From: an uncultured Gemmatimonadales bacterium
GTDB taxonomy: Bacteria > Gemmatimonadota > Gemmatimonadetes > Gemmatimonadales > GWC2-71-9
DNA: 64,000 nucleotides
Assembly: GCA_963828735.1 (NCBI GenBank)
Contig: CAWHFW010000005.1
Coordinates: 2,464,001-2,528,000 of the forward strand
Direction of reading: 5' to 3'
Part shown: positions 1,100 through 56,800 of the stretch, piece after piece
How the letters are laid out: every line of letters begins with the position of its first letter
How positions within the stretch are numbered: position 1 is the first letter of the stretch
Position numbers and translations under genes: made by a program
The notes under the pieces: model-generated
What the model was told of the DNA's origin: nothing
Databases searched by the model: none
Seen by the model: only the letters and a program-made list of their open reading frames with translations

Positions 1100-1345
1100 C
1101 TAGCCTACAATCCGCAGCTGTCTCGGAGCGTTCATCACCCGGAGCATCGACGCCTCATCGGTCTGCTGGTAGCACGTGAGACGGGTGTTGGTGTCTCTCC
1201 AACCCCCAGTTGCTTTCACGTCAACCAGTGGGAGATCCTTCCGCTCCCGTAACCCTTCCGCCGGAACGGATGCCAAGCACCTCCCTTCAGGTGTTCCAGA
1301 CCGGCTTTCTGTTCCGCCACGAGGAGTTGTTCTCCAAAGATCTCG
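1100..1345 (-). pseudogene. tyrosine recombinase C-terminal remnant (frameshifted)
   Basis: Two frames join as GGAWHPFRRK / ERKDLPLVDVKATGGWRDTNTRLTCYQQTDEASMLRVM (HxxR...W...Y). Confidence 0.75.
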
Positions 1346-1361
1346 CGGGGCCGGAGTCGCG

Positions 1362-2123
1362 TCAGAGTGTGGGAAAGATCGTGTGGGTGTGAGGTGCTCG
1401 TACACTCGCCCTGCCACACTCGCCCTGCCACTCCACGAGGTGGCGGCCGGGTTGCATGAGAACCTCGGCTGCGGTCGGAAACGGACTCCTATGGTGTACG
1501 CCGTCCCGAGGATCGTAAGAGCCTTGGCAGCCCTTTGCCGGGAGGCATGACCCCCGTCCGATTATCCTCCAGCTGCCCGCCGCAACTCCCGGGCGGCGAC
1601 AACTAAATCCAATGTCTGCACCCGCATCGTGCGACTCAGTTTCCAGTGCCAAGGCGAGCTTGCTCAATCCGGCGTGCGCCCGCACGATCTCAATCTCAGC
1701 GGCGGCCGCCAGGTCGGTGGCGCGGGTGATGGCGTCACGCACCGCGTGGTGGAGGTCGTCGGCGGTGAATGGTTTGAGTAGCACCCGGACGGGAGTGTCC
1801 GACGACTCGATATAGGGCACCGCGTCGGGATCGGCGGACATGCAGAGAAGGGCGACGCTCGGCCGATACCGTCTCAGCGTTTCGGAGACCTGACGCCCAT
1901 CAATTCGCGGCATCGAGAGGTCGGTCAGGACCAGATTGAACGGCTCGGTGCGCGCTTGAATGAGTCGCAGTGCGGACTCACCGTCCGGAGCCTCCTCGAC
2001 GTGAAAGCCTTCGGCTTCGAGCATGCGGCGGAGGATCCCGCGCACCGACAGGTCATCATCGACCACTAGCACGGTGGCTCCATACCAGATCGGACCGTGG
2101 GCCGTGGTAGGAACTTCGGCCAT
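1362..2123 (-). CDS. response regulator receiver protein
   Basis: VLVVDDD, VLTDLSMP and LLKPF motifs; probable frameshift near 1640, true stop likely near 1562. Confidence 0.85.
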   Translation of the reverse strand: MAEVPTTAHGPIWYGATVLVVDDDLSVRGILRRMLEAEGFHVEEAPDGESALRLIQARTEPFNLVLTDLSMPRIDGRQVSETLRRYRPSVALLCMSADPDAVPYIESSDTPVRVLLKPFTADDLHHAVRDAITRATDLAAAAEIEIVRAHAGLSKLALALETESHDAGADIGFSCRRPGVAAGSWRIIGRGSCLPAKGCQGSYDPRDGVHHRSPFPTAAEVLMQPGRHLVEWQGECGRASVRAPHTHTIFPTL

Positions 2124-2232
2124 GTGGCATCTGCCGGGAGTGGGTTACCGGCGCGTGACTGGGCTACCTGATGCTAACGCCGTTCGAAGTGTTTGTCACG
2201 AAACCGAGCCGACCACGACGAGCCCAACCTGA

Positions 2233-2451
2233 TCATCCAGCGTGCCGGCTAGCGCCAGTGCTTCTTCCTTGTCTCCAGCCGTGAACACGACGTAGCCGGA
2301 CTTCGCAAGCATCCTGGCCGTTTACGGCCGCCCCAGCCTCTTCCTGGGCGTTGAAAGGAAGGCCGTCTGCCTCGTCGTGTATCCGGTGGTGCACTTTCGA
2401 CTCTATGACCTGGTCGATCGTCATTTTCTCCCGTTCACGGGTAGGCAGCAT
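2233..2451 (-). CDS. small hypothetical protein
   Basis: 72-aa ATG ORF filling an intergenic gap; no recognised motif. Confidence 0.3.
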   Translation of the reverse strand: MLPTREREKMTIDQVIESKVHHRIHDEADGLPFNAQEEAGAAVNGQDACEVRLRRVHGWRQGRSTGASRHAG

Positions 2452-2579
2452 GTTCGAGGTGCGTCTGCGCGAGCCCGGCGACTACCCTTCGTCAGCCATA
2501 CTTTCGCAGATGCCACCAAGGAGGCGGTCGGGGTGCTTCGCGTCCTCCCCCCGTGTCGCGGGACGGTGAGGGCCGATCG

Positions 2580-2924
2580 ATGAAGGTCTACGATCCTGCG
2601 ATCGTCGCACGAGAGGCGTTTGCCGCGCACCCAGCGCGACCGGCCATGGCCGTCGTGCACGACGCACCGGACGCCCGGCTCGTCGTCTTCCGCCTCGCCG
2701 CGGGTCAAGCCGTCCCGGTACATACCTCCGTGTCCTCGGTGGTGCTCCACGTCCTCTCGGGGTCGGGGCTGGTGAGCAGCGCCGATGGCGAGCGTGATGT
2801 GCGCGCCGGCATGGTCGTTGCCTACGAGCCCCAGGAACCTCACGGGATGCGAGCGCTGGCCGAGTTGATCGTGCTCGCCGTCATCGCCCCTCGGCCGGCA
2901 AGCCGCCGAGGCCCTTTGGAGTAG
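2580..2924 (+). CDS. cupin domain protein (copy 1)
   Basis: VPVHTS...LHVLSGSG...EPHGMRA; near-identical to 10396-10743. Confidence 0.85.
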   Translation: MKVYDPAIVAREAFAAHPARPAMAVVHDAPDARLVVFRLAAGQAVPVHTSVSSVVLHVLSGSGLVSSADGERDVRAGMVVAYEPQEPHGMRALAELIVLAVIAPRPASRRGPLE

Positions 2925-2960
2925 CGCAGCTGGAATTTCCCAAGCGCTGGCCGTCTAGGC

Positions 2961-3045
2961 AGCCCAGGAGGGGCAATCAAGCCCGGCAACGACTTCGGTC
3001 GTGCCGGGCTTCCGCCAATCTGGTGTGTGAGTCAGTGAGTGAGTT
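2961..3045 (+). repeat. partial junction (tRNA 3' end, terminator, GTGAGT motifs)
   Basis: AGCCCAGGAGGGGCAA, hairpin AAGCCCGGCA..TGCCGGGCTT, GTGTGAGTCAGTGAGTGAGT. Confidence 0.85.
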
Positions 3046-4105: not shown

Positions 4106-4228
4106 TCCGTCGCTGGACTGCACATCGATCGCCTTCACCCGTTCACGTCGAGCGACGCTTCATCGACCCCGCACTGCTTCCCTACGCGCAAGTCGGCCTT
4201 CGGATTGGAAGTCGCGGAAAGAAGGCAG

Positions 4229-4492
4229 CAAACCGTGACATCTGAGTGAGTGAAACACAGCAACGTGCGGCACGAAATCCATCAAACGCCAGCATCGGGT
4301 GACACGAACTCGCGTGAATGCGTGCAAGTTGCTGGAATTCGGCTGCTCACCATGGCCCCTCTGGATCAGAAGAGCCCTGGTTCACCTTCGGTGGCCTTCG
4401 GCTCGAGCCCAGGAGGGGAATCAAGCCCGGCAACGACTTCGGTCGTGCGGGGCTTTCGCCTATCTGGGGGTGTGTGAGTTAGTGAGCGAGTT
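4229..4492 (+). repeat. att-like junction with 21-nt T-loop insert
   Basis: Left arm, core at 4359, insert 4383-4403, terminator, GTGTGAGTTAGTGAGCGAGT. Confidence 0.9.
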
Positions 4493-4513
4493 GCTTCGTG
4501 GATTCCCACGCGC

Positions 4514-4700
4514 TCACTTGTGACTCGGACTCGCCGGGTCAGTGCGAGCGGTCGGGGATCGCTCGAACTCGACCACCGACCGCAGGGTGTCGTCGTCGCA
4601 CTGCCGATAGCACTGCTGCAATGTCCCGATGTCGAGCCAGCCGCCCCCCGCCGCCACACCCAAGGAGATGGGGGGTGCTCCATGACGCGCCAGCCGGCGT
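4514..4700 (-). pseudogene. degenerate tyrosine recombinase C-terminal remnant
   Basis: VAAGGGWLDIGTLQQCYRQCDDDTLRSVVEFER aligns by eye with the other integrase tails. Confidence 0.65.
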
Positions 4701-4701
4701 A

Positions 4702-6075
4702 TCACTTCTCGCGCGGCTCCGAGAGCCTTCGCTCGTACCAGGAGAGAAGTGGCCGTGCGCTGATGCCGTGCAGCAGGATGCTGGCCGCAACGACGGAGAT
4801 CGTCACCCCCGCCAGCTCTGTCGCGGCCGGACCCGAGACGCCGTGGCTCAGGGCGTAGCTCAGGTAGTAGAGGCTCCCGATTCCGCGAATGCCGAACCAC
4901 CCCATGAGCCAGCGCTGCGAGTTCGTGGTCGGCGTGCCCACGAGCATCAGCCGGGTCGCGCCCGGGCGGATCACCAGCATGAGCAGGAGCGCGAGGGGAA
5001 CGGCCCGCAGGTCCCAGTGAGTCGTGAGGCACACCCCCACCAGAACCACCAGCAGCAGTTCAACCAGTCGCTCGACCGTATCACCGAACGAGATCGTCTC
5101 CGCCACCAGCACGCCCGCGGCGACTGCCGGCTCTCGCAGCTCCTCCGCCCCGACGCTCGCGCCGACCAGGTCCTCCGCCGGCGGATGTGACGAGGCCTCG
5201 GTCGCGGGATCCCTTACTGGCGGTGCCGGGCTCCGTACCTGCTCGGGATGCGGCGTCTCCCGCGTCACGTGCAGCTCGGCGTGGCGCAGGCCGACGCCGG
5301 CGGCGAAGGTCGCCAGGAATCCCCACGCGCCGATGGTTTCGGCGCCGACATAGGAGAGCGCGATGAGGGCGAGCGCCAGGAAGTCGCTCGGCGCATGGGT
5401 GTCCTGCTGCAGGCTGCGGAGCCAGATGGCTACTCGCCCCACCGCGCGGCCGAGCCCGAAGCCCAGGAGCAGACCGACGGGCACCGCCCACACTACCCGC
5501 GCCAGCACCCATTCGCCGATCCAGCCCCCTGGGCCGCCGTGCTCCGCCCAGATCAGGGCGAGGACGACGAAGGGAAACGCCGCGCCGTCGTTCAACCCGG
5601 CTTCGCCCGATAGCCCGTAGCGCACCCGGTCGTGGTCGGTGGCGCTATCCACCTTTACCATGCTGGCCAGCACCGGGTCGGTCGGGGCGAGCACCGCGCC
5701 CGCCAGCAGGGCCATCGCCGGATCCAGCCCGAGCAGCAGGTGGGCACACAACGCCACGCCGAGGATGCTCGCCACCATCACGGGCCCGGCGAGGCGATAC
5801 GCCGCGACCCAGGCGGGGTGCCGCAACGGCAGCCGCAGTTTAAGCCCGCCCACGAAGAGCGCGACGATCACCGCGATCGCAGTGAGCCGTTCGAACCACG
5901 GCCCCGCCTCGCGCAGGTCGATGCGTAGCCACCCGAAGCCAAGCGGACCGATGGCCACGCCCAGCGCCAGATAGATAGCCGACGTCGAGATCGGGAGGTT
6001 CCGCAGATAGGCGGAGGAGAGTGCCATCAGCAGCAGCACGAGGCCGCCGAGCGCCATCCAGCCGAGAAAGCTCAT
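4702..6075 (-). CDS. cation:proton antiporter (CPA1/NhaP family)
   Basis: LAPTDPVLA, GEAGLNDG and GWFGIRGIGSLYY motifs; multiple TM segments. Confidence 0.92.
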   Translation of the reverse strand: MSFLGWMALGGLVLLLMALSSAYLRNLPISTSAIYLALGVAIGPLGFGWLRIDLREAGPWFERLTAIAVIVALFVGGLKLRLPLRHPAWVAAYRLAGPVMVASILGVALCAHLLLGLDPAMALLAGAVLAPTDPVLASMVKVDSATDHDRVRYGLSGEAGLNDGAAFPFVVLALIWAEHGGPGGWIGEWVLARVVWAVPVGLLLGFGLGRAVGRVAIWLRSLQQDTHAPSDFLALALIALSYVGAETIGAWGFLATFAAGVGLRHAELHVTRETPHPEQVRSPAPPVRDPATEASSHPPAEDLVGASVGAEELREPAVAAGVLVAETISFGDTVERLVELLLVVLVGVCLTTHWDLRAVPLALLLMLVIRPGATRLMLVGTPTTNSQRWLMGWFGIRGIGSLYYLSYALSHGVSGPAATELAGVTISVVAASILLHGISARPLLSWYERRLSEPREK

Positions 6076-6155
6076 TGTGCTCAACGCCCCGTTGGTTCCA
6101 TCGCGTGCGGGCTAGTCGGAGGCGACGGCGCTGCGGTGGAGCCGGCGTTGTTCGG

Positions 6156-7262
6156 CTACTCCTCCCGCACGCCGATGTCGGAGCGAACTGGCCTGGACCC
6201 GGGTCTCGACGCCGAGACCATGCCCCAGACCGCGATGAACATCGCGGCGATCACCGGCCCGAGGACGAAGCCGTTGATGCCGAAGATTGCTATGCCGCCC
6301 AGGGTGGAGATCAGCACGACGTAGTCGGGCATCCTGGTGTCCTTGCCGACCAGGATCGGGCGCAACACGTTGTCCACCAAGCCGATAACGAGCACGCCGT
6401 ACGCAGTCAGCACGATGCCCTGCCAGATCGCACCGGTCGCCAGGAAGTAGAGCGCGACCGGCAGCCAGACCAGCGCAGTGCCCACCGCAGGCAGCAGGGA
6501 CAGCAGGGCCATCAATGCGGCCCAGAGCGCCGGCGCGTGGATCCTCAGTAGCCAAAAGATCAGACCCCCGAGCGCGCCTTGCACGACGGCGACGACGAGG
6601 GTGCCTTTGACCGTGGCACGGATGACGCCGGTGAACCGGCTGACGAGCGTCCGCATTTGCTCCGGGTGCAACGGAATCGCCGCCCTGATACGCTCGACCA
6701 GTGCGTCGCCGTCGCGCAGCAGAAAGAACAGCAGGTAGAGCATGACGAACAGGCTGAGAACGAAGTTGAGCGTGTTCTGGCCGAGGTTCAACGCCTGTCC
6801 CGCAAGGAACTGGCTGCTCGTCCTCAGTGCAGCCGACAGCCTCTCCTGCACCAGGCCCAGGTTCGTTAACCCGAATCGGTCCAGCAGGCTCGTGACCCAT
6901 CCGGGCAACGCGTTGAAGGCCTGCTGAAGATACCGGCCGATGTCAAACTCTCCCGACTGGATCCTTTCGTACACGCCGGCCCCTTCCTGCACCAGCAAGG
7001 CCGTGATCAGCGTCAGCGGCAGAATCACCAGCACCAGGATCATCACGAGCGTGGCGAACGCCGCAAGCGTGCGCCGCTGCCGCATGGACCGCAGCTGCCG
7101 CCGGTAGAGCGGTGCGAAGACGATCGCGAGGATCACCCCCCACAGCACCGCCCCGAAGAACGGCCAGACGATCCAGGCGAAGGCGAGCGTTACCGCGACG
7201 AGCAGAACCAGGAACGTCTTGTCTTCGAGGGCGGGAGATTCCGCTTGGCGTGGCGGCGTCAC
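6156..7262 (-). CDS. AI-2E family transporter
   Basis: DNVLRPILVG...STLGG..FGINGFVLGP motif; GTG start inferred. Confidence 0.92.
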   Translation of the reverse strand: MTPPRQAESPALEDKTFLVLLVAVTLAFAWIVWPFFGAVLWGVILAIVFAPLYRRQLRSMRQRRTLAAFATLVMILVLVILPLTLITALLVQEGAGVYERIQSGEFDIGRYLQQAFNALPGWVTSLLDRFGLTNLGLVQERLSAALRTSSQFLAGQALNLGQNTLNFVLSLFVMLYLLFFLLRDGDALVERIRAAIPLHPEQMRTLVSRFTGVIRATVKGTLVVAVVQGALGGLIFWLLRIHAPALWAALMALLSLLPAVGTALVWLPVALYFLATGAIWQGIVLTAYGVLVIGLVDNVLRPILVGKDTRMPDYVVLISTLGGIAIFGINGFVLGPVIAAMFIAVWGMVSASRPGSRPVRSDIGVREE

Positions 7263-8075
7263 GGCGTCCGCTCGCACGGCGCCATCAGGTCCACCGTTGT
7301 CGCAGCACGAACGATGTTGCGCAGCATTCCGGCAATCACCATCGATGAATCCCCCACAGCCCATACCAATAGAACAGCCCCCGGACCGCGACGGGATCGA
7401 AGATCGCGGTCTGCCGTATGAGACTGCCGCCGGCCGCCCACGTCACCTCGAGCTGAAGCCATGCCCGCCCCGGCACCCGCATTTCCGCCGCGAGTCTGAG
7501 TAGCCGCCCGGGCTCCACCGCTTCCACCCGCCAGAAGTCCAAGGCGTCCCCCGGCATCACAGACGCCGGATCCCGCCGGCCCCGCCGCATCCCCGGTCCA
7601 CCCACCACGATGTCGAGAAGCCCACGCAGCCGCCAGAGAGTATTCCCATAGTACCAGCCCGCATCCCCCCCCCGATGCGCGAAATGGGCTGGAATGCCTT
7701 CCTACACCACTGTCGCGTTGCGCACCCGGTCTATCAGCTCTCGTCCCACCTGCGCGTGGACCGGCGAGACCAGCGCTGGCCAGAGGCTCGAGAGCCGCGG
7801 CGCGAGCAGGGGCACGGGAATCATTAGTCGTCTCAACCCTCGGAGCCGCGCGTACTCCCGCATGAGATCGCCGTAGGAAACCCGGTCGGGTTCCCCGATC
7901 TCGTAGACCACGCTCTCTAAGGCTGGGAGATCGAGGGCCTCCACCAAATACGCGGCGAGATCCTCGACGCCGATCGGCTGAGTCGGTGTGTACCACCCGG
8001 CTTGGGGTCACCATCGCCGGGAGCTTCACCACCAGTGAGCGGCCCAGCTCGAACGAAAGGCTGCCGGAGGGTGGG
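7259..8075 (-). pseudogene. YbjT-like NAD(P)-binding / DUF2867 protein, fragmented
   Basis: Fragments in several frames: TQPIGVEDLAAYL, YEIGEPDRVSYGDLM, GDALDFWRVEAVEPGRLLRLAAEMRVPGRAWL. Confidence 0.75.
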
Positions 8076-8297
8076 CGAGAGGCCTCAGACCCGAATGGGT
8101 AGGTATTTGACCCGGCATCGTGCGATCTGCGAATAGCATGGCACACCAGAACTGTGCTCAAGCTGCACGGCGCCCGATGAAGCGAGGATGAACCTGGGGT
8201 GAAACCCCGATGACGGAAGGCATCTTCATGCTTACTTCAGCCGGTACTACACTTCCCTCGAATAGCTTCTCTTTGACTCCCAACGTGAGTGCACGGC

Positions 8298-8714
8298 ATG
8301 CTTCAGCACACTACCCGGTATGGCATCAGTACCACCGTCTCCTTGCCCTATGCCCAGGCCGTGGAACGGACTCGCGACGCGCTGGCGAATGAAGGGTTCG
8401 GTGTTCTCACCGAGATTGATGTGGCGGCGACGCTGCGGAAGAAGCTGGAGGTTGAGTTCCGGCCCTACATCATTCTGGGCGCCTGTAACCCGCCTCTGGC
8501 CCACCGGGCGCTCGAGGCCGAGCTGGAGATCGGGCTGCTGCTGCCCTGCAATGTTATCGTCTACGCGGCCGATGATCCGGAACACACGGTGGTGGCAGCG
8601 CTCGATCCGGTCGAGGCCCTGAGCCTGAGCGGGAACGATGCCATTCAGCCGATAGCGGAAGACGTCCGGCGACGGCTCCAACGTGTCTTAACGACTGTCG
8701 AAGGGATGAGCTAG
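8298..8714 (+). CDS. DUF302 domain protein
   Basis: EGFGVLTEID...ILGACNP...IGLLLPCNV signature. Confidence 0.92.
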   Translation: MLQHTTRYGISTTVSLPYAQAVERTRDALANEGFGVLTEIDVAATLRKKLEVEFRPYIILGACNPPLAHRALEAELEIGLLLPCNVIVYAADDPEHTVVAALDPVEALSLSGNDAIQPIAEDVRRRLQRVLTTVEGMS

Positions 8715-8852
8715 GAGCTGCTCTGGAGCGGGGCCAGCTGACGCCCGGAGATGACGGTGACGGTATTCGAGCATGTTCTCATCGCCGCGGAACGAAAGCG
8801 GCGCGGACGTGGTCGTGGAGGTCTTTGCCTGTACTGCTGGAGCAGCGGTTCG

Positions 8853-9099
8853 GCAAACTCCGACATTTGAGTGAGTAAAGTACGGCAAAGTCGAGCATGA
8901 AACCCAGCAAACTCCAGCATCGGGTGCCACGAACTCGCGTAAAGGGTAGCAAGTTGCTGGACTTCGGCTGGTTACCACGGCCCCTCTGGATCAGGAGAGT
9001 CCTGGTTCGAGCCCAGGAGGGGCAATCAAGCCCGGCAACGAGTTAGCTGTTGTCGGGCTTTGTCTATCTGCCCGCCTGCCGTAGTTTCGCCGTAGTTTC
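8853..9099 (+). repeat. att-like junction (no insert) with tandem GCCGTAGTTTC motifs
   Basis: Left arm, tRNA half 8984-9025, terminator, GCCGTAGTTTCGCCGTAGTTTC. Confidence 0.92.
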
Positions 9100-9411
9100 T
9101 CAGGTATGTCCTGCATCTAGACCGCGACGTTTCTCGGGTGCCTCCATCACCCTGAGCATGGAGACCTCATCTGTGTGCTGGTAGCAGGTAAGCAGCGTAT
9201 TGGTGTCTCGCCAGCCTCCTGCTGCCTTCACATCAACGATAGGGCGGTCCTTTCGTTCGGTTGCCCACTTGCGCCGATAGGGGTGCCAGACACCGCCTTT
9301 CAGGCGTTCCAGCCCGGATTTCTCTTCGGCAAGGCGAAGCTGCTGGCCAAGAATCTCCCGGGACCACGGTTCTGATCCATCGCCCGACGGGAATAGCCAC
9401 GTCTCGCCTAT
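9100..9411 (-). pseudogene. tyrosine recombinase C-terminal remnant (104 open codons, no start)
   Basis: Manual translation WLFPSGDGSEPWSREILGQQLRLAEEKSGLERLKGGVWHPYRRKWATERKDRPIVDVKAAGGWRDTNTLLTCYQHTDEVSMLRVM. Confidence 0.85.
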
Positions 9412-9658
9412 GCCTCGAGTTGGACCACACGAACCCTGTACTCGTCTCCCCAGTAACTGGGGTCGCCCTTGAGCGCCGCCCTCGCTTTACGCCGGATGGC
9501 CGCAAGAATTGCACGATCCGTTTCAACCCCGTCAAAGTCAGCGTAGGCGCGCTCAATCAGATTATCAAGACTGACGGCGTGCACCCAGTTACCAGTGTCA
9601 CAAAGGCTGCACGCCTGGACATTCGCGGGCAGCTGGGTCCTTCGGCCCGAAGTCCACG

Positions 9659-10192: not shown

Positions 10193-10395
10193 GTGTTAAT
10201 GTATGGGATCGCTGCCACCAGCTGGCTAATTAGGGGGGCACCTTCAGACGACGCGGAGAAGCCGGTGCGGCTCAGTCAGTCGCGCGCGCTCCCTGAACGG
10301 AGACCCTCTGCGACATCACATAGCGCGCCCTACGGTGGGATAACGACTTTGGCCGCCGCCTCTGCAATCCACGGGGGAATGGCGAGGACCGATCG

Positions 10396-10743
10396 ATGAA
10401 GGTCTACGATCCCGTGGCTGTCGCGCGAGAGGCGGCTGCCGTGCACCAAGCGCGGCCGGCCATGGCCGTCATGCACGACGCACCGGACGCCCGGCTCGTC
10501 GTCTTCCGCCTCGCCGCGGGTCAAGCCGTCCCGGTACATACCTCCGTGTCCTCGGTGGTGCTCCACGTCCACTCGGGGTCGGGGCTGGTGAGCGGCGCCG
10601 ATGGCGAGCGTCATGTACGCGCCGGCATGGTCGTTGCCTACGAGCCCCAGGAACCTCACGGGATGCGAGCGCTGGCCGAGGAGTTGATCGTGCTCGCCGT
10701 CATCGCCCCTCGGCCGGCAAGCCGCCGAGGCCCTTTGGAGTAG
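10396..10743 (+). CDS. cupin domain protein (copy 2)
   Basis: Near-identical to 2580-2924. Confidence 0.85.
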   Translation: MKVYDPVAVAREAAAVHQARPAMAVMHDAPDARLVVFRLAAGQAVPVHTSVSSVVLHVHSGSGLVSGADGERHVRAGMVVAYEPQEPHGMRALAEELIVLAVIAPRPASRRGPLE

Positions 10744-10773
10744 CGCAGCGGGAATTTCCCAGGCACTGGCCGC

Positions 10774-11472
10774 TCAGGCAGCCACCACGCCGAACAACTT
10801 GCCGAGGGCCGCCGTCAGGCCCATTGCCAGAGCGCCCCAGAACACGACACGCAAGGTCCCCACCCAGGGCCGTGCCCCACCGGCCCGGGCCGCCACCGCC
10901 CCCAGCAGGCCGAGGCAGACGAGCGAGGCACCCGCGACCAGGGTCACGAGCCAACGAGTCGGGCTGCAGCTTGCCACCAGCAGGGGCAAGGCTGCTCCAA
11001 CGGCGAACGTCGCCGCCGAGGTCAGCGCCGCCTGTACCGGCCTCGCCTGCAGCACCGCCGAGATGCCCAGTTCGTCGCGCGCATGGGCACCGAGCGCATC
11101 GTGGGTCATCAGCTGCGCCGCCACCTCGGCTGCGAGCGTGGGCGTGAGACCGCGATGCTCGTATATCGTGGCCAGCTCCGCGTGCTCCGCCACGGGACTT
11201 CCCGCCAACTCGCCCCGCTCGCGCGCCAGATCCGCCTGCTCGGTATCAGCCTGGGAGCTCACCGAGACGTACTCACCCGCCGCCATCGACATGGCGCCCG
11301 CCACGAGCCCGGCCACCCCGGCGACGAGCACGGCGGGGCGCGAGGCCTCGGCGGTAGCGACCCCGAGCACCAGGCTCGCGGTCGACACGATGCCGTCGTT
11401 GGCTCCCAGGACGGCCGCCCGCAGCCAGCCGATGCGCTCCGTACGATGCAACTCCGGATGGATGGTCCGCAT
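10774..11472 (-). CDS. VIT1/CCC1 family transporter
   Basis: LRAAVLGANDGIVS...SMAAGEYVSV...HARDELG. Confidence 0.93.
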   Translation of the reverse strand: MRTIHPELHRTERIGWLRAAVLGANDGIVSTASLVLGVATAEASRPAVLVAGVAGLVAGAMSMAAGEYVSVSSQADTEQADLARERGELAGSPVAEHAELATIYEHRGLTPTLAAEVAAQLMTHDALGAHARDELGISAVLQARPVQAALTSAATFAVGAALPLLVASCSPTRWLVTLVAGASLVCLGLLGAVAARAGGARPWVGTLRVVFWGALAMGLTAALGKLFGVVAA

Positions 11473-12679: not shown

Positions 12680-13180
12680 GTGCGATATGCGGAATGGAAC
12701 GCATCTTCGCGTGCCGTTCATCAAACCTTCACCTGCGCCCTCCTAGCATGGATGGTGCCCACTCAGAGGCACGGACCCTATGTGGGCCTGGACGCCGGAT
12801 GCCAAGCGGGCCGGGAGGCATGTACGACATACGCACAGACCTCATACACTCCAGCCGATTCGCAGGCGACCGGTAAACGGCTGGACAACATCGGGTGGGC
12901 TGTCTTCTTCATCCTTACGGGTGCGCTCTGGCTGGTCCCCGAATCCCAGGTGCCCCCGGGCACATGGTTCATCGGAGTCGGCCTGCTTCTGCTGGGGCTC
13001 AATGCGGTGCGCAGGATGAGCAGCCTGCCGGTAAGCGGCTTCGGCACCATTCTGGGCGTGCTCGCACTCGCCGCCGGCGTCTCCGCGTTCCTGGGCATTG
13101 AGGTGCCTATCGTTGCGATAGGCCTGATCCTGCTCGGGCTGGGTCTGCTAGCGCGGGAATTGAGCGCTCGACGTGCTTGA
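12680..13180 (+). CDS. hypothetical membrane protein (start uncertain)
   Basis: Four hydrophobic segments in the C-terminal ~100 aa; overlaps the arsA start. Confidence 0.6.
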   Translation: MRYAEWNASSRAVHQTFTCALLAWMVPTQRHGPYVGLDAGCQAGREACTTYAQTSYTPADSQATGKRLDNIGWAVFFILTGALWLVPESQVPPGTWFIGVGLLLLGLNAVRRMSSLPVSGFGTILGVLALAAGVSAFLGIEVPIVAIGLILLGLGLLARELSARRA

Positions 13181-14969: not shown

Positions 14970-15057
14970 AACGTGTCAGTGCAGCAGGAGGACAAGTCCT
15001 ATGGCCCACCTCCAAGGACACGCCAGCCAGCCGAGGCTCCCCGATGAGTCTGTCAGA

Positions 15058-16023: not shown

Positions 16024-16142
16024 GTCCTGGGCCTGCAGGCATAAGCGACACGGTACTGCTGCGGTCGAGATTGCCGGTGTCTGGCAACCGAGCTACCAGC
16101 GAGGAGATCGCTAGTGGACCGTGCTGAGGCACGTCAGGATCC

Positions 16143-42811: not shown

Positions 42812-43113
42812 CAAGTCCGAGCATTTGTGAGAGTAGAGTACGGCAAAGTCCGGCATGAAACCCAGCAAACCCCAGCATCGGGTGGCACGAACTCGCGTAA
42901 ATGGTGGCAAGTTGCCGGAATTGGGGTGGTTCCAGCGGCCCCTCTGGATCAGGAGAGTCCTGGTTGACCTCAAAAGGTCGCCGGCTCACCTCCGGTGGCC
43001 TTCGGCTCGAGCCCAGGAGGGGCAACTGAAAGCGCGGTGGCTGCTTGGCAGCCGTCGCGCTTTGCTTATTTGCGGGGGTGTGTGAGCAGTGTGTGAGTTA
43101 CTGCGTGAGTTAC
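42812..43113 (+). repeat. att-like junction with 42-nt T-loop insert and three GTGAG motifs
   Basis: Core at 42942, insert 42966-43007, terminator, GTGTGAGC/GTGTGAGT/GCGTGAGT. Confidence 0.92.
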
Positions 43114-43645: not shown

Positions 43646-44473
43646 CTAGGGAAGCGCGGCAGAAAACTCCGCCATGCTCGTGAATCGCTCGGCAGCCGAT
43701 TTAGCGAGCGCCCGACCCAGGGCCTCATCAACCGTCTCCGGCACGGTGGCCCGAAGCCGCCGAGCCGAGGGCACGGGTGTTCGGAAGATTCGGGTGACCA
43801 CTTGGTGCGCCAGCGCCCCCGCGTAGGGAGGTTCGCCGGTCAACATCTCGTACAGAAGGCAGCCCAGACTATAGATGTCGGCCCGCTGGTCCAGCTCGCG
43901 CTCGCCGAGTAGTTGCTCCGGGCTTATGTAAAACAGGGTCCCCACCATGATTCCTGTATCGGTCAGCTTGCGATAGTTCGCGACGCCGAGGGCCCGGGCC
44001 AGCCCGAAATCCGCAACCAGCGCCCGGGGTTCGGCAAGGAGGATGTTCCCCGGCTTCACATCCCGGTGCAGGATGCCTAGGCCGTGGGCGTACCCGAGCG
44101 CCTCGGCCACGTCGTGCGTGATCCGGAAGGCTTCCTCCAGAGAGAGCTGACGCTCCCGATCCAACCGCTGATGAAGTGAGCCGCCTTCGATGTACGGCAT
44201 ACTGTAGTAGGGCACCTCGCCGGCGTCCCCAGACTCAAGCAGGGGCAGGATGCTTGGGTGCGAGAGCGACGCGGCTATCTCCATCTCGCGCCGAAATCGC
44301 TCGGTGTCGAGCGTAGCGCTCAGATCACGGTGCATGATCTTGATGGCCACCGGCTGTCGCTGGCGGACGTCGTGCGCGAGGTACACCGTGGCCATCCCAC
44401 CGCGCCCGATCTCGCGTTCAATCAGATAGCGGTCGCGGAAGGCCTGAGGGAGTGGTGAGGGTGTTGCGGTCAC
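43646..44473 (-). CDS. Ser/Thr protein kinase (catalytic domain only)
   Basis: EIGRGGMATV, HRDVKPGN, DFG, GTLFYISPE. Confidence 0.92.
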   Translation of the reverse strand: MTATPSPLPQAFRDRYLIEREIGRGGMATVYLAHDVRQRQPVAIKIMHRDLSATLDTERFRREMEIAASLSHPSILPLLESGDAGEVPYYSMPYIEGGSLHQRLDRERQLSLEEAFRITHDVAEALGYAHGLGILHRDVKPGNILLAEPRALVADFGLARALGVANYRKLTDTGIMVGTLFYISPEQLLGERELDQRADIYSLGCLLYEMLTGEPPYAGALAHQVVTRIFRTPVPSARRLRATVPETVDEALGRALAKSAAERFTSMAEFSAALP

Positions 44474-44608
44474 ATCGGTACCAACGACGGCAATGATGGC
44501 TAACCTAGCCCGAAGGACAGCCTCACGCTAGCCAAATACGCATGGGTGGCCCGCGGGCAAAGCAGCTGCCTGACGTCGGGAGGGACATCGAAGTGGCGTA
44601 ATGACCTG

Positions 44609-44860
44609 GCGAACCCCTTCATTTGCGCGAGTTAAGTACGGCAGGGTCCAGCAACCAACTCGGCAAACTCCAGCATCGGGTGACACGAACTCGCGTGAAT
44701 GCTAGCAAGTTGCTGGGGTTCAGCCGGTTACCACGGTCCCTCTGGATCAGGAGAGTCCTGGTTGACCTCAAAAGGTCGCCTTCGGCTCACCGTCGGTGGC
44801 CTTCGGCTCGAGCCCGGGAGGGGCAATGGCTCCCGCGACAGTGGGAGCCGTTTCCTTTTT
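44609..44860 (+). repeat. att-like junction with 45-nt T-loop insert, fourth terminator type
   Basis: Core at 44740, insert 44764-44808, GGCTCCC..GGGAGCC hairpin. Confidence 0.9.
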
Positions 44861-45703: not shown

Positions 45704-46630
45704 ATGGGTATTTTCGATTCATCTCGCACCCGCGTTGCGCCGGTCTTCGGCCGCCTGCAGTGCTTGGATCCATCCGGCAGACTGTGGCTCCAGGGACTCC
45801 TCGAACTGGCAAACAGTCGAAAGGTGCCGAGGCCGGAGGCCGGTCGCTCGCGCCTGCGGCTGGCGAGGTGGTGGCCGAGGGAGGCGAGACTGGCCGCTCC
45901 GCCGGGGCTTCTTCGATGGCTTCTGGAGAATGTGGAGGAGCCACGTGATGCCGCGGCATGGGGTCGCAGGCCGGAGGTGATGGCCAACCGGCGCCGAGTC
46001 GTCGACCGAGATGCCGACACGCTCGCTGGGGCGTTACGGAGTCTTCAAGAACGCCGCCTGTCGCCTCGCGCCTGGTACGTGCTTGAGGGGCCAAGTCAAC
46101 CAGACGTATATCTGGATTCCGCGGATGCCGTGATCGTTGTCGAAGGAAAACGAACGGAGACCGCTCCGACAACTTCCACAGCCTGGATGCGTGTGCGGCA
46201 TCAGATGCTGCGGCACCTTGACGGCGCCTGGGAGCATCTAGAGGGTCGGCGAATCTATGGCCTCTATATCGTCGAGGCGGACAATGGAACCAGCTCCACC
46301 GAACCCCCATCCACCTGGCACGAGGCAGTCGAGTCAACGATCTCGGACGAGGTGCTGAGGGGCAGCCTGCCGCACCGCACGTCCGACGAACGATCGCAGA
46401 TCGCCAGTGCTCTGCTCGGCGTTACCACCTGGCAGGCTGTCTGCGACGAGTTCCAGATACCCCGTGACGTTCTCATCCCCGAAGTCTTTGATGACGCGCC
46501 CGCGCTGAGAAGCACGCGCCGGAAATCGGGGAAGTCTCGGCGGCCTACCCCTTTGCCTGGTGACCTTGACCGGGCAGAGCCATCGCAAGCGACGGCAGCT
46601 CGTGGCCAACCTGATCATTTGAGTGAGTAA
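45704..46630 (+). CDS. putative PD-(D/E)XK nuclease-like protein
   Basis: EGPSQPDVYL...IVVEGKRTE...HQMLR; AAGGAGG RBS. Confidence 0.7.
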   Translation: MGIFDSSRTRVAPVFGRLQCLDPSGRLWLQGLLELANSRKVPRPEAGRSRLRLARWWPREARLAAPPGLLRWLLENVEEPRDAAAWGRRPEVMANRRRVVDRDADTLAGALRSLQERRLSPRAWYVLEGPSQPDVYLDSADAVIVVEGKRTETAPTTSTAWMRVRHQMLRHLDGAWEHLEGRRIYGLYIVEADNGTSSTEPPSTWHEAVESTISDEVLRGSLPHRTSDERSQIASALLGVTTWQAVCDEFQIPRDVLIPEVFDDAPALRSTRRKSGKSRRPTPLPGDLDRAEPSQATAARGQPDHLSE

Positions 46631-46880
46631 AGGATGGCAAAGTCCGGCATCGAAGCCAGTGAACCCCAGCGGCGGGCGACACGAACTCGTGTCAATGGTT
46701 GCCAGTTGCTGGAACGCGGATAGTAATTCTGGCCCCTCTGGATCAGGAGAGTTCTGGTTGACCTCAATAGGTCGCCTTCGGCTCACCTCTGGTGGCCTTC
46801 GGCTCCAGCCCAGAAGGGGCAATGAAGTCCGCAACGGCTTGCTGTTGCCGGGCTTCGTCTATTTATCCACCTGCCGTAGG
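46606..46880 (+). repeat. att-like junction with 45-nt T-loop insert
   Basis: Core at 46736, insert 46760-46804, first terminator type, GCCGTAG. Confidence 0.9.
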
Positions 46881-47344: not shown

Positions 47345-47687
47345 CGGCCGCTGCGGGCGACGAGCGGCAGTTGATTTGGACTCCTTCGCGTGAACGTAGC
47401 TGCCGCTCGTACTGAGCGGCAGGGCGTTAGGGGGCTTGGTTGTTCGATGTCGACGGTCAGATCATACGGTTGCTAGTCTACCCGTCGGCGGTACTCAGCG
47501 GCCGCGACATCCCTGAGCGGGAGCTCCTTCCGCTCCGTCACCCACTTCCGCCCTCAACCGATCGTCAACGCCCCAGCGCCCCTGGTGCAGTACAGGACCC
47601 CGTCCATCTACCGCGCGGATGCTGTCGAGGCGTACCTTACCCTATGTAACCCACCGGCAGGGCTGTCATCTCGAGCCCGGAAGGCGT

Positions 47688-50429: not shown

Positions 50430-50448
50430 TCGAGCCCAGGAGGGGCAA
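50430..50448 (+). repeat. isolated tRNA-Gln 3' end (T-loop to acceptor)
   Basis: TCGAGCCCAGGAGGGGCAA exact match to the junction core. Confidence 0.75.
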
Positions 50449-53226: not shown

Positions 53227-53671
53227 GGTTCCCTCCCTGAGGTGAATAAGTCCCTGATGCCAAGCGTGTATCGCCAGCCGGCCAGTCAGACCCGTGGCCG
53301 CAGGCACAGCGTCCTTCGGTACCATGCGGCGCCAATATGGGAATGCCGCGGTCCGCGAACATCCGGCCTCGGTCCGGACTGGAGGCTCACGATCGCCGGA
53401 CGCGCGAGGGCGCCTAAGGCGGGGGTGGATCCCTGTCTGGAGTCGGAGGGCATGGCGATGTGCCGCCTAAGAGCCGTAGGTCGAGGTCTGTGGGTCCTAG
53501 CTCGTGGCTGGCAGGGTCTACGACCCGAGATCGACGACCTACGACTCGGCGGTGGGTATTGCGATCCAGGGCCCGAAGGGCTGCCGCGGCAACGAACGCG
53601 GGGCGCGTCGTCTACACGCTCGTATGGTGCCCAGCGCGCCCCCGTGTCTCGGGCCGACGTCGGAGAGGGTC

Positions 53672-53926
53672 GGCAAGCTTCGACGTCTGTGTGAGCAAAG
53701 GCGGGCAGAATCCAGCATTCAGCACAGCCAACTGCAGCATCGGGCGACACGAACTCGCGTGAATCGTTGCAGTTGCTGGAGTTTGGGCAGCTACTGCGTC
53801 CCCTCTGGATCAGGAGTGTCCTGGTTGACTTCAAAAGGTCGCCTTCGGCTCACCTGCGGTGGCCTTCGGCTCGAGGCCAGGAGGGGCAACTGAAAGCTCT
53901 GCAACGGATTTTGTTGTGGAGCTTTT
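53672..53926 (+). repeat. att-like junction with 45-nt T-loop insert, fifth terminator type
   Basis: Core at 53803, insert 53827-53871, AAAGCTCTGCAAC..GTTGTGGAGCTTTT. Confidence 0.9.
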
Positions 53927-54695: not shown

Positions 54696-54828
54696 GGCTA
54701 TCTCCTTTTGGGTGTTGAGTCCGATTGCAAAGGGACGTTAACGACCGTACGTTCCCTGAGCGTTCCCCCAGTGCGCTCGGTCCGGTGACGCGGATTTGCG
54801 GGCGCGGGTGGCGCCTCAGGCAGGTACA

Positions 54829-56544
54829 ATGCGCGTCCAGATCCTCCTGCTCGGCCAGTTCCGTGTCAGCGTTGGCGACACCGTCATCCCCGCGGACGCC
54901 TGGCGCCGCGAGCGTGCCGCCGCTCTCGTGAAGCGCCTGGCGCTGCTCGCGCGACATCGTCTCCACCGCGAGCAGGCGATGGAACTGTTCTGGCCGGACC
55001 TGGACTCGGATGCCGCGGGTGCGAACCTGCGAAAGGCCATCCATTTCGCTCGGCGCTCACTGGGCGAGCACGACCTGCTCGAAGTGAACGGCGATATCGT
55101 CGCCCTCGCGCCGAGAGCCGAGCTCGTCATCGACACCGAGGAGTTCGACGCTGCCGCCAAGGCGGCACTCAGCGGCCAGGGTGGCAGCGAGTGCAAGCGA
55201 GCGGCGGACCTGTACGGCGGAGAGCTCCTACCCGACGACCGCTACGTGGAGTGGCTGGAGGAACCGCGGCAGCAGCTGCGGGAGCTCTACGCGCGAGTGC
55301 TCAAGACGGGCAAGCTGTGGGAGCGGCTGGTCACACTCGATCCGACCGACGAGCAAGCCCAATGCGCACTCATGCAGGCAGCGCTCGACGCCGGGAACCG
55401 CGCCGAAGCGATCCGGCTGTTTCAGCGCCTTCGGGAACTATTGCGCATCGAGCTCGGCGTGGGGCCGAGAGCCGCCACCATCGCGATCTACGAGCGCGCG
55501 CTCGCGATGTCGGGGGTCGCGCCCGTTAGTCCCGTCGATGGCATCCGCGCCTCTCTTGCCTGGGGGCTCGTTCATCTCCAAAGCGGTGATTTCGCGAAGG
55601 CCGAGAGCATCGCCAGGGAGACGCGCGACCTGGCTCTCGGGGCCGAGCTTGGGCGCGAGGTGGGAGAGGCCAGCGCGCTCCTCGGACTGGCCGCGCACAT
55701 GCGGGGCCAGTGGCGGGATCTATTCCTAACGGAATTCACGGAGTGGATTCGCGCCGCGCCGAAGTTCGCCTCGAACATGTTCGACGGACACCTGTGCTTG
55801 GCCCAGTTCTGTCTCTGTGGATCGAGCGGTCTCGAGGAGACGCGGAGCACTGCGCAGGAGCTGCTCTCGGTCGCGGAGCGCGAGGGCTCGGTCGCAGGGC
55901 GCGCGCTCGCGCTGGTGTGCCTGGGCGAGGCCGAGCTCTTCTCGGGCCGGCTCGATGAAGCCGAGCGGCTCCTGGATGAAGCCGAGCGCCTCCATGTCGA
56001 GAGTGGGACGGCCGCAGGGCGCGCGCTCGCTCTCGAGCGGCTGGCGGAGATCGCGCTCTTGCGTGGTCAGAAGTGGCGGGCAGGCCGCATTGTCCAGCGA
56101 GCGGAGCGTGTCGCCCAGACGAGCTGGCTAACGCCGCACCTCCTCATCCGTCTGAAGGGCCTTGCCGTGCAGACAGCATCGACCCCGGAAAAGGCCGCCA
56201 AAGTCATCCTGGAGGGCGATCGAGCGCTGGCGGGCGGGAGCAGCTGCCAACCTTGTTCGATGGGATTTCGTGCCGCGGCCGCGATAGCGCTCGCCGAGGC
56301 GGGCGAACTGGAACAGGTCGGCCGGCGGCTCGACGAAGCCGAGCGCCTGGCTGGCATGTGGAGCGGCGGCCCGTGGGTCGCGGCCCTGTGGGAGGCGCGT
56401 GGCGTGCAGCGCAGGGCCCAAGGCAGCGAAGAGCGAGCTCTGGCGGCTTTCAGCGAGGCGGCCGAACGGTTCGGGGAGCTGGGGCGGCCACTCGATGAAG
56501 CGCGCTGCCGGGGCCGGATGAAACTCGCTACCGCCGCCCACTGA
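54829..56544 (+). CDS. SARP/BTAD family transcriptional activator with TPR-like region
   Basis: LLGQFRV, LHREQ...FWPDL, YGGELLPDDRY; divergent from the peroxiredoxin. Confidence 0.88.
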   Translation: MRVQILLLGQFRVSVGDTVIPADAWRRERAAALVKRLALLARHRLHREQAMELFWPDLDSDAAGANLRKAIHFARRSLGEHDLLEVNGDIVALAPRAELVIDTEEFDAAAKAALSGQGGSECKRAADLYGGELLPDDRYVEWLEEPRQQLRELYARVLKTGKLWERLVTLDPTDEQAQCALMQAALDAGNRAEAIRLFQRLRELLRIELGVGPRAATIAIYERALAMSGVAPVSPVDGIRASLAWGLVHLQSGDFAKAESIARETRDLALGAELGREVGEASALLGLAAHMRGQWRDLFLTEFTEWIRAAPKFASNMFDGHLCLAQFCLCGSSGLEETRSTAQELLSVAEREGSVAGRALALVCLGEAELFSGRLDEAERLLDEAERLHVESGTAAGRALALERLAEIALLRGQKWRAGRIVQRAERVAQTSWLTPHLLIRLKGLAVQTASTPEKAAKVILEGDRALAGGSSCQPCSMGFRAAAAIALAEAGELEQVGRRLDEAERLAGMWSGGPWVAALWEARGVQRRAQGSEERALAAFSEAAERFGELGRPLDEARCRGRMKLATAAH

Positions 56545-56550
56545 AGGCGG

Positions 56551-56741
56551 AGTCGCGGGAATTGGGGTGGTTACAGCGGCCCCTCTGGATCAGGGGAGTC
56601 CTGGTTGACCTCAAAAGGTCGCCTTCGGCTCACCTGCGGTGGCCTTCGGCTCGAGCCAAGGGGGGCAATGAAGCCCGGCAACGAATCAGCTGTTGCCGGG
56701 CATCGTCGATTGCCTACCTGCCGTAGTTCCGCCGTAGTTTC
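56551..56741 (+). repeat. att-like junction (left arm truncated) with 45-nt insert and tandem GCCGTAGTT motifs
   Basis: Core at 56583, insert 56607-56651, terminator, GCCGTAGTTCCGCCGTAGTTTC. Confidence 0.9.
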
Positions 56742-56748
56742 TCGCCCT

Positions 56749-56800
56749 TCAGCTCCCCACACTTCGCAGTTCGGGGAGCATCCATCACCCGGACCATCAG
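56749..56800 (-). pseudogene. extreme C-terminal scrap of a tyrosine recombinase
   Basis: MVRVMDAP matches MLRVMNAP/MLRVMEAP of the 1100 and 9100 remnants, in the same position. Confidence 0.5.

Follow-up and report, generated by a model that had tools for sequence, protein, structure and literature searches.

The tyrosine-integrase genes of a tRNA-linked island array in an uncultured Gemmatimonadales bacterium from soil are represented by short 3′ ends, and the question raised by this locus is what such ends record about the islands that left them and about how the units of the array may move. The sequence analysed, here called the window, comprises 64,000 nt (GCA_963828735.1, CAWHFW010000005.1 positions 2,464,001-2,528,000) and is the interior of a tandem island array behind tRNA-Gln(CTG), the intact gene (G000:C5:2457709-2457781) lying 6.2 kb upstream of it. 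Downstream of the intact gene, displaced tRNA-Gln 3′ fragments follow in the same orientation, each starting at the CTCTGGA core in the anticodon loop, which is the combination of intact tRNA and 3′ fragment that characterizes anticodon-class tDNA-targeting islands. The integrase gene also expected of each such island is present in relatives (e.g., G399, G034, G047, and G048) but not in the window, where remnants only were found in every unit. The array has at least 17 units, with cargo in mixed orientation.

Junctions and integrase remnants in the window

The arm that closes a unit on its right is ∼130 nt long (190 nt for the arm-plus-tRNA repeat), and it is of type b at 14 of the 15 window junctions. 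The units and junctions, all on the plus strand, are as follows.

1 to 984, plus strand: right part of a 2.65-kb integrase-less unit that starts 1.67 kb upstream of the window
846 to 1088, plus strand: type-b right arm, core 985, a tRNA-Gln 3′ half that ends at 1025, a hairpin, and a single type-a repeat (1079-1088)
2960 to 3043, plus strand: scar with the last 16 nt of tRNA-Gln, hairpin, and type-b repeats, without arm or tail
4220 to 4490, plus strand: type-b arm and a core at 4359, a tRNA half whose T-loop carries a 21-nt insert, a hairpin, and repeats of type b
8847 to 9098, plus strand: type-b arm and a core at 8984, a tRNA half that ends at 9024, a hairpin, and a pair of type-a repeats (9078-9087 and 9089-9098) ending 2 nt from the integrase stop
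16135 to 16315, plus strand: type-b arm, core 16275, tRNA half, without tail
21582 to 21724, plus strand: type-b arm and core (21719) alone
25557 to 25712, plus strand: type-b arm, core 25694, shortened tRNA half, without tail
28772 to 28989, plus strand: sole type-c right arm (repeats 28772-28792), a core at 28898, a tRNA half, and a single type-c repeat, without tail
32046 to 32243, plus strand: type-b arm and a core at 32182, with a 21-nt insert in the tRNA half
33236 to 33435, plus strand: type-b arm and a core at 33374, with a 21-nt insert in the tRNA half, a plain terminator, and no tail
33374 to 36381, plus strand: integrase-less kinase unit, 96.2% identical to the unit that adjoins the tRNA in G412
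36245 to 36468, plus strand: type-b arm and a core at 36382, with a 46-nt insert in the tRNA half, without tail
42803 to 43098, plus strand: type-b arm and a core at 42942, with an insert in the tRNA half, repeats of type b, and no tail
44601 to 44825, plus strand: type-b arm and a core at 44740, with a 45-nt insert in the tRNA half, without tail
46598 to 46821, plus strand: type-b arm and a core at 46736, with a 45-nt insert in the tRNA half, an incomplete type-a repeat, and no adjoining tail
53667 to 53888, plus strand: type-b arm and a core at 53803, with a 45-nt insert in the tRNA half and a left end of type f (also present in G401 and G409)
56551 to 56740, plus strand: truncated type-b arm and a core at 56583, with an insert in the tRNA half and repeats of type a

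Integrase remnants were scored with a profile of 416 positions, for which the top decoy reached 10.7 bits over 18,534 reversed segments, and the following pieces were identified.

1100 to 1352, minus strand: type-a integrase 3′ remnant (profile 65 bits) with a frameshift near 1250, HxxR in one frame and W and Y in another; last 48 aa 92% to P0054, DNA 222/262 to L156
4514 to 4660, minus strand: type-b integrase 3′ remnant, GGW..CY region only (profile 30 bits; DNA 79/111 to the type-b gene of G366)
9100 to 9414, minus strand: type-a integrase 3′ remnant of ∼104 codons (profile 152 bits), 76% to full-length P0054, without its own start codon at the 5′ end
21727 to 21849, minus strand: type-b integrase 3′ remnant fused straight to the core (profile 22.5 bits; DNA 72/89, z 39)
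32347 to 32520, minus strand: type-b remnant, WHTFRR region, with an internal stop (28 bits; DNA z 14)
47497 to 47550, minus strand: extra 18-codon integrase piece with no adjoining junction (20 bits; DNA z 15)
56749 to 56830, minus strand: decayed type-a integrase 3′ end of ∼25 codons (DNA 76/93 to L156, z 25 against shuffles; protein match weak, E 0.24)

Five of these minus-strand fragments had been named in the original prediction, together with a VAEFER scrap at 32290-32337 (minus strand) that is not significant by itself (z 1.5); the scrap abuts the remnant at 32347-32520, and the two are probably one type-b gene after an internal deletion. The pieces at 32347-32520 and 47497-47550 had been missed. 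The motif GGW.D..TL..CY.Q.D, supposed to be common to all fragments, was found at 9100 and 4514, with TRL for TL at 1100, without GG at 21727, and not at all at 56749, and WHP(F/Y)RRK was confirmed in the two copies claimed (9100 and, in another frame, 1100) alongside a third copy at 32397 that reads WHTFRR. Similarly, a position just downstream of a junction is correct for the six tails listed but not for 47497-47550, ∼680 nt away from the nearest tRNA end. Tails were present at 6 of the 15 junctions and missing from the other 9, with 74–93 nt between integrase stop and tRNA end for four window tails. The junction next to 21727 has lost its tRNA half, its hairpin, and the repeats of the left arm, with the tail stop 2 nt from the core. 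Window tails in general retain only subsets of the catalytic residues, the subset at 9100 being HxxR, W, and Y. Beyond the window, a possible integrase tail at 69.5 kb is marginal (z 4).

Integrase lineages and the C-terminal bias

The window remnants themselves reached no Pfam match; their full-length homologues are tyrosine integrases of ∼400 aa from Gemmatimonadota, in agreement with the prediction that the remnants are tyrosine-integrase ends. PF00589 is carried by 26 of 27 homologue matches, and all six full-length homologues tested (38.7–51.8 bits) pass its curated cut-off of 27.1 bits. Catalysis by tyrosine recombinases involves the motif positions R, K, HxxR, H/W, and Y, and the corresponding predicted catalytic residues are all present, invariant or nearly so, in the full-length alignment. 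No solved structure was found among the sequence relatives, and the family is, as judged from sequence, a tyrosine recombinase (PF00589). The closest full-length homologues end beside tRNA-Gln(CTG), also as predicted.

The window tails split into two lineages (FastTree, 52 hand-picked rows, no bootstrap) that are ∼37% identical, namely, type a (1100, 9100, and 56749) and type b (4514, 21727, and 32347). The type-a right arm is absent throughout the window, and the three type-a tails lie in chimeric units closed by type-b arms. Intact or congruent islands with left repeats matching right repeats were found in G399, G047, G048, G043, and G415, and a single 16-kb island of G366 carries the array arm together with a left arm of type b and a type-b int that is broken; the cognate integrase of the array arm is type b. 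Contrary to what had been proposed, the remnants do not identify the cognate family, because they belong to two lineages and the longest tails together with 56749 are type a, whose arm is absent from the window. The suggested search of this genome with the tails found no full-length cognate integrase, and the two strongest PF00589 matches in the genome are not matched by the tails. The best other match lies at tRNA-Ile, where the gene is spread over four frames and is 39.5% identical to the 9100 tail. Type-b genes among the best 20 matches in 103 genus genomes are all broken, and full-length type-b integrases occur in metagenomes.

Several tyrosine-integrase island lineages target the tRNA-Gln(CTG) anticodon loop, and in each of them int points at the tRNA with its stop abutting two arm repeats and a hairpin. 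The integrase stop lies 63–109 nt from the tRNA end in 33 of 42 tRNA-Gln loci, so deletions that start inside an island leave 3′ tails. A profile search found no N-terminal integrase piece in the window and surrounding 113 kb, where segments of at least 11 bits all start at profile position 304 or later of 416; a piece upstream of the window, at −3533, reaches ∼residue 247 by single-query tblastn. Among 28 truncated segments in tRNA-Gln arrays, 25 start at profile position 280 or later and none before 171, 21 extend to position 400 or beyond, and coverage climbs toward the C-terminus with scattered 5′ ends, while every one of the 33 segments whose region has a core points toward that core. The survival of C-terminal tails only therefore describes the window and surrounding 113 kb but is a gradient and not a rule, as relatives retain a middle piece and an N-terminal 241 residues. 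Detection bias was rejected as the origin of this pattern with planted fragments of three integrases outside the profile, counted as found at 10 bits or more (a fourth test protein, G399, was omitted as a member of the training set). N-terminal 50-mers were recovered in 24/24 cases, 35-mers in 21/24, and 25-mers in 12/27, so that short or decayed N-terminal scraps could escape notice.

The region of the catalytic Tyr is the part most often kept, and 10 of 26 tails follow a co-oriented cargo gene within 60 nt vs. 17% of random positions, although this enrichment is weak, has an unmatched null, and is not relied on. These features would suit tails that are expressed as peptides, for example, dominant-negative inhibitors of incoming integrases, but such a function has next to no probability given that the truncated segments share no start, vary from ∼18 to 200 codons, and are frameshifted or stopped in 9 of 28 cases, that the first in-frame start of the 9100 remnant occurs only at codon 43 from its end, and that most junctions have no tail. 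The integrase tails are passive leftovers of at least two mobile-island families after ordinary decay, and the earlier proposal that the units descend from autonomous islands is supported.

Retained arms and the apparent movement of units

In a census of 77 complete units in the genus, 53 end in a type-b arm, a share inflated because the census regions were picked by type-b arm match. Among the contigs analysed, G046 was merged with G399 and G053 with G424 as duplicates, and G394:C152 was left out as nearly identical to G003:C219. Type-b left-arm repeats occur in 5 of the 53 units with a type-b right arm (6 by eye) and are missing or of another type in 47–48, as typed by short patterns that left 18 of the 77 left ends without type and made two calls that look spurious. 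Of the 14 units that are first in line at the tRNA, 11 are closed by a type-b arm, all of them without left repeats of type b. The distal right arm is thus kept and the cognate left arm mostly lost, with cores kept at both ends, contrary to the earlier claim that both att arms persist. If each unit were a decayed island with both cognate arms, its tail could have survived by overlapping or abutting the left arm, in keeping with the gap of 2–4 nt between stop and arm repeats seen at 9100 as well as in numerous intact islands, with homologue P0011, which reads through the repeats, and with the congruent units 4359-8984, G326, and G415. This is nonetheless very improbable and is largely refuted by the table of arm types, since type-a tails are closed by type-b arms in 3/3 window cases, the 21727 tail persists though its left arm is deleted, only one repeat is left at 1100, and left repeats are absent from most units.

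Integrase-less units appear to move between species, and transfer is implied by identities of 96–99.5%. The 2.65-kb unit at the start of the window is 99.5% identical to the first-in-line unit in G421, with a flank of 74.0% over 9.0 kb, the kinase unit is 96.2% identical to its counterpart in G412, with a flank of 79.4% over 12.3 kb, and a third pair is 98.0% identical. The shared units of G421, G412, and G024 adjoin the intact tRNA, and their boundaries fall at the cores. Shared units lack cognate left repeats in both genomes and differ in their neighbours in the pairs inspected. The arms are less alike than the adjacent cargo in 4 of 6 shared pairs (93% vs. 99% in the closest), which points to extra arm-to-arm exchange, perhaps homologous. 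Such mosaic arms, and a general arm similarity of ∼77–79% within and between genomes with a nearly invariant tRNA half, would agree with a spread of units by homologous recombination between the 190-nt arm-plus-tRNA repeats (uptake or transduction), site-specific recombination having only built the array originally. This is quite improbable, however, as shared units sit at the intact tRNA in G421, G412, and G024, where homology is only ∼43 nt, and flanks are just 74–79% identical.

The favoured account, held with moderate confidence, is that the tails are scars in a tandem-accretion array whose units are cis-mobilised, in a CIME-like manner, by a rare type-b helper island. An integrated island would erode from the inside outward, and the hairpin beside the tRNA may be protected while the unit is first in line because it ends the tRNA transcript, so that survival would fall with distance from the tRNA in the order hairpin, arm repeats, int 3′ end, and rest. 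Junction-crossing deletions would then join a foreign left end, tail included, to an older unit. A rare intact type-b island may integrate at the tRNA, excise with the next unit via the right arm of that unit, take this passenger to a new host, and later leave or decay; as only the distal arm of the passenger would ever be used, the left end and int tail would be unselected baggage. Neither a helper-plus-passenger composite nor a circle or other excision product was observed, and contigs of four public DNA runs gave candidate excision joints with short sides only, none of them trustworthy; two RNA runs contained 6% of the words.

The tails would again be baggage if one-armed cassettes were mobilised in trans by a type-b integrase from elsewhere, with right arm and core sufficing, as in an integron-like array. 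The shared units without cognate left repeats in both genomes, their differing neighbours, the small unit size (median 3.1 kb), and the lack of an intact cognate gene in this genome are consistent with this mode, which is still unlikely because intact islands bear the same repeats in both arms, fitting a two-armed attP, the array has no resident integrase gene linked to it, and cis-mobilisation gives the same pattern with no new chemistry. In addition, the arm does not fold like attC: an attC-like site was rejected on 70 type-b arms, which gave a consensus energy of −2.2 and no stem with covariation, and 20 type-b arms folded singly had a median z of −0.25. It is possible, if doubtful, that a soil Gemmatimonadales genus maintains an integron-like cassette pool at tRNA-Gln, in which one 130-nt arm, belonging to a single integrase lineage, is enough for units of 1–7 kb with any left end, and a hit-and-run integrase that is almost never resident would carry them from species to species. 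Because the left end would be irrelevant to capture, foreign integrase tails would ride along, and "capture and move" would depend on the right arm as a minimal portable signal.

The tails are useful as labels that tie named integrase clades to specific arm repeats, and they reveal competition for one tRNA site among two or more distant lineages and among five or six types of arm. Labelling also uncovers an asymmetry invisible to tRNA-fragment counts, in which one arm is kept, the opposite one is lost, and integrase-less units appear to cross species, and it makes testable the long-standing question of the minimum that an integrase-less island requires to remain mobile. It further supplies natural sets of integrase, attB, and arms for Gemmatimonadota, a phylum with few described mobile elements, for which a literature search found nothing.

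Comparison with known systems

Tandem accretion of islands behind a tRNA is an established route to gene arrays, and what is notable here is that the blocks retain a single docking arm but nevertheless appear to pass from one species to another. Integrons and superintegrons are likewise long arrays of small gene blocks, the newest beside a fixed site, common to species. The present array resembles them as a long array of small blocks with units common to several species and differs in having no resident integrase, no folded attC-like site, and mixed cargo orientation; IntI was not found (NCBIfam integron model 18.7 bits vs. a cut-off of 265). In the literature searched, which includes the 2004 and 2011 accretion papers through citations only, the array, polar integrase remnants in tandem arrays, and one-armed units were not described.

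According to the available portions of the published accounts, CIMEs of the ICESt1/ICESt3 family are decayed elements of 1.2–13 kb without recombination genes that lie in tandem at one site and move together with an incoming autonomous element by accretion and cis-mobilisation (PMC5704250, PMC7563491). No intact integrase was found in the tandem units of the window, and cis-mobilisation is the working mechanism proposed for them. CIMEs by definition retain both attL and attR, whereas the units here usually retain the distal arm only; the composites surveyed in Streptococcus salivarius had two or three elements vs. at least 17 units here, and a conjugation module was not identified (no relaxase or T4SS family among 59 frames scanned). 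The islands in Islander, as far as its accessible text describes them, share with this locus the tyrosine integrase, the intact tRNA with a displaced 3′ fragment, and the anticodon-loop crossover, and 4 tandems of three or more were recorded among 3,919 islands (PMC4383910). An integrase is required in every Islander entry, so units of the present array would be filtered out.

Prochlorococcus tycheposons, in the part of the description consulted, integrate serially at one tRNA, displace older elements outward, and leave fragmented integrases and partial tRNAs behind, as observed here, but have their own integrase and replication modules; that part contains no arm-level analysis and no integrase-less cross-species units (bioRxiv 10.1101/2020.12.28.424599). 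Similarly, the Dehalococcoides ssrA islands, as presented in the sections available, form many tandem islands over ∼100 kb from one RNA gene, 15 of them without an integration module and proposed to be cis-mobilisable (PMC3146451). These islands use the tmRNA 3′ end, a 20-bp repeat, and a ccr-like module (PMC3146451), whereas the array behind tRNA-Gln(CTG) has an anticodon-loop core, 130-nt arms, and several competing tyrosine-integrase lineages.

Array layout and integrase remnants

The units are stacked behind a tRNA-Gln(CTG), which lies together with a tRNA-Ala(CGC) 6.2 kb upstream of the window (positions 2464001-2528000 of contig C5 in genome G000); no tRNA gene lies inside the window. 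In the repeated junction (15 in the window, 2 further between tRNA and window), a 130-nt arm is followed by a core sited in the anticodon loop and then by the tRNA-Gln 3' half; faint arm matches extend to ~100 kb from the window start. Cargo families are Ser/Thr kinases, transporters, an ArsA ATPase, a sigma factor and hydrolases, and homologous loci with names belong to Gemmatimonadota in nearly all cases.

Integrase pieces in the window; types a (clade of protein P0054) and b (P0074/G034 clade) are integrase lineages
1100, minus strand: 3' tail, type a
4514, minus strand: 3' tail, type b
9100, minus strand: 3' tail, type a
21727, minus strand: 3' tail, type b
32347, minus strand: 3' tail, type b
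47497-47550: seventh piece, away from any junction
56749, minus strand: 3' tail, type a

The pieces listed in the original prediction are all visible by six-frame translation, but its VAEFER scrap (32290-32337) alone is not significant (z 1.5). Against a profile of full-length relatives, the pieces at 1100, 4514, 9100, 21727 and 32347 score above every decoy, and DNA comparison supports the 56749 remnant (76/93, z 25). The supposedly shared motif GGW.D..TL..CY.Q.D is complete in two of six remnants, and the placement of tails just downstream of junctions holds at 6 of 15 junctions but not for the seventh piece. Survival of C-terminal tails only was borne out, as a profile search of 113 kb gave zero N-terminal integrase segments. 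In a control with planted N-terminal fragments of three integrases that the profile did not include, the search picked up 24/24 of the 50-mers and just 12/27 of the 25-mers.

The 9100 tail matches 27 longer proteins, 26 with PF00589, and the full-length homologues (396-414 aa) exceed the Pfam cut-off, as anticipated. The 167 loci fetched were the top 80 from a list of 535, the top 80 from another of 307, and 7 more. The six closest to this tail (61-77%) all run up to tRNA-Gln(CTG) or to the 3' half of it, again as foreseen, and 130 of the 167 have a tRNA ≤1.5 kb from the integrase end, which is Pro in 76, Gln(CTG) in 38 and another tRNA in 16. The proposed search of the same genome gave no full-length cognate: the genome under study (G000, 97.5% complete, 5% contamination listed for the bin) has no intact copy. 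A related integrase in four frames converges there on tRNA-Ile(GAT) (C5:597546-599207, locus L013), with a second C-terminal remnant across that tRNA likewise pointing at it.

The ArsA block (plus strand, 12680-15471) lies inside the unit starting with the 9100 tail. Ser/Thr kinase genes recur (22661-25630, 25728-28622, 33482-36301, 43646-44473; relatives in fetched loci L057-L076 and L353-L392), often beginning ~240 nt from the next core, transcribed away from the arm, and adjoining type-b as well as type-c arms. Two units share a 400-nt duplication (2560-2859 and 10376-10780, 93% identity), whose first copy stops at the 2960 scar. Orphan junction pieces also occur (21412-21470, 38377-38392, 50432-50447, 57977-58051): one is half of a hairpin with type-b repeats that lacks the tRNA half, two are tRNA 3' ends standing alone, and one is an incomplete arm.

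Hairpin-like inserts of 21 to 46 nt, all ending GCCTTCGGCT(C), occupy the T-loop of tRNA halves; absent from 21 intact tRNAs and 12 rank-1 junctions, and common in distal junctions and other genomes, they may be scars left by a second process that targets the T-loop. Related 70-nt modules repeat the tRNA's last 17-20 nt behind a terminator. One unrelated 100-nt sequence in three genomes stops 4 nt into the tRNA half, which suggests another element inserting just past the anticodon.

Inserts at tRNA-Gln halves
4384-4404, 32207-32227, 33399-33419, 36407-36452, 42967-43008: T-loop inserts
44765-44809, 46761-46805, 53828-53872, about 56608-56652: T-loop inserts, continued
L060:4203; G399 unit at C2 about 302325; L280:2485: 100-nt sequence (fetched loci and a genus genome)

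Far from the array, G000 carries tRNA-Gln halves with a divergent arm (C5:517272-517394, 721336-722698, 753675; L014-L016) behind tRNA-Lys(CTT), behind tRNA-Lys(TTT) and as an inverted pair near 721-722 kb, besides long tRNA-Gln(CTG)-like calls (C4:85199, C5:1368399) and two tmRNA genes with different tags (C4:172777-173139, C5:2756475-2756829).

Polarity and arm types

In 33 of 42 tRNA-Gln loci the integrase stops 63-109 nt past the tRNA, with a hairpin and two direct repeats between them; the remaining nine have inserts, broken frames or an unscored end, and four window tails retain the same spacing. A genus census (54 regions, 33 genomes, 935 kb, chosen by arm or integrase matches) yielded 34 integrase segments: 3 nearly full-length, 28 truncated, and 3 attributed to other sites and set aside. 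Of the truncated segments, 25 of 28 begin no earlier than position 280 in the 416-position profile and none before 171, 21 reach position 400, 24 adjoin a junction or its remains (contig ends cut two), and 9 contain a frameshift or stop, with scattered breakpoints. Exceptions are a middle piece in G399 (171-258) and, outside the census, residues 1-241 plus 345-395 in G366. Integrase survival falls off with distance from a protected end, owing to island geometry, and the tRNA terminator probably protects the adjoining end.

The remnants had been taken to name one cognate family; instead they fall into two clades, a and b, ~37% identical and split with full local support. Every island type has its own repeat twice, behind the hairpin and ~113-126 nt ahead of the distal core, in types a (GCCGTAGTTT), b (GTGTGAGT-like), c, d and e. 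In the lambda paradigm, integrases bind arm-type sites, and by analogy and position these repeats are putative arm-type sites. At an intact tRNA, G366 has a single 16.1-kb island with type-b left arm, broken type-b gene and array arm, and G034 has a less closely related version whose gene is full-length; the array arm is therefore the type-b right arm. Of the 15 window junctions, 14 have type-b and one type-c right arms and none type-a, so the type-a tails are parts of chimeric units. An attC-like hairpin reading of the type-b arm was rejected by folding analysis; unlike it, type-c (median z -3.8, n 5) and type-a (-1.8, n 8) right arms, e.g. 28772-28897, fold better than shuffles.

Arm asymmetry and movement between species

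The complete units number 77, with a median size of 3.1 kb, and type-b arms close 53 of them; the left ends of these 53 are most commonly plain terminators (19), then other-type repeats (10, one doubtful), hairpins without repeats (8), type-b repeats (5) and deletions (2), with 9 in no class. The predicted retention of both att arms thus fails, type-b left repeats occurring in 5/53; directly at the tRNA, 11 of 14 units are closed by type-b arms, 0/11 with type-b left repeats.

Identity of 90-99.5% over 80% of unit length links seven pairs of units found in different genomes. The unit ending at 984, third in line in G000, is first in G421 (99.5% over 2,460 nt vs 74.0% over 9.0 kb of flanking chromosome), and unit 33374-36381 is first in line in G412 (96.2%; flank 79.4%); both are without integrase or left repeats in the two genomes compared. 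The likeness between arms of shared units, 80-93%, exceeds the 77% median for random arms but usually stays below that of their cargo. Among 103 genus genomes, one intact tRNA-Gln(CTG) integrase was found (G399, type d), and type-b genes among the 20 best matches are all broken; since many of these genomes are fragmented, intact type-b genes are 'not found' rather than 'absent', and full-length ones are present in metagenomes.

From the observed anatomy, arm-integrase pairing, polarity, asymmetry and cross-species identity, we infer that a type-b helper rather probably mobilises neighbouring units. It would integrate first in line at the tRNA and pair its own attL with the next unit's right arm, both excising together; the passenger would contribute only its distal arm, which would for that reason be conserved while the left end, tails included, is free to vary; after transfer the helper would depart or decay. 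One-armed mobilisation of units in trans is a less likely alternative, and homologous exchange at the repeats seems less likely still. Contigs from four runs contained no reliable excision joint.

The original observation was thus largely correct and its interpretation half so: the tails are ordinary scars that serve as labels. No account of the present array or its one-arm asymmetry was found in the mostly open-access literature searched, and two further sources add little on such arrays (PMC5812530; 10.64898/2026.01.13.699239). The array varies a known theme, tandem tDNA islands, integrase-less members and fragmented integrases being already in print (PMC4383910; PMC3146451; 10.1101/2020.12.28.424599; PMC5704250; PMC7563491), as is the outward displacement of older units by serial integration at a tRNA (10.1101/2020.12.28.424599; PMC5704250). 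For joint excision, one report offers a precedent in the accretion-mobilisation of CIMEs, decayed elements without recombination genes moved in cis with an autonomous one, which the proposed excision of helper and passenger would resemble (PMC7563491).
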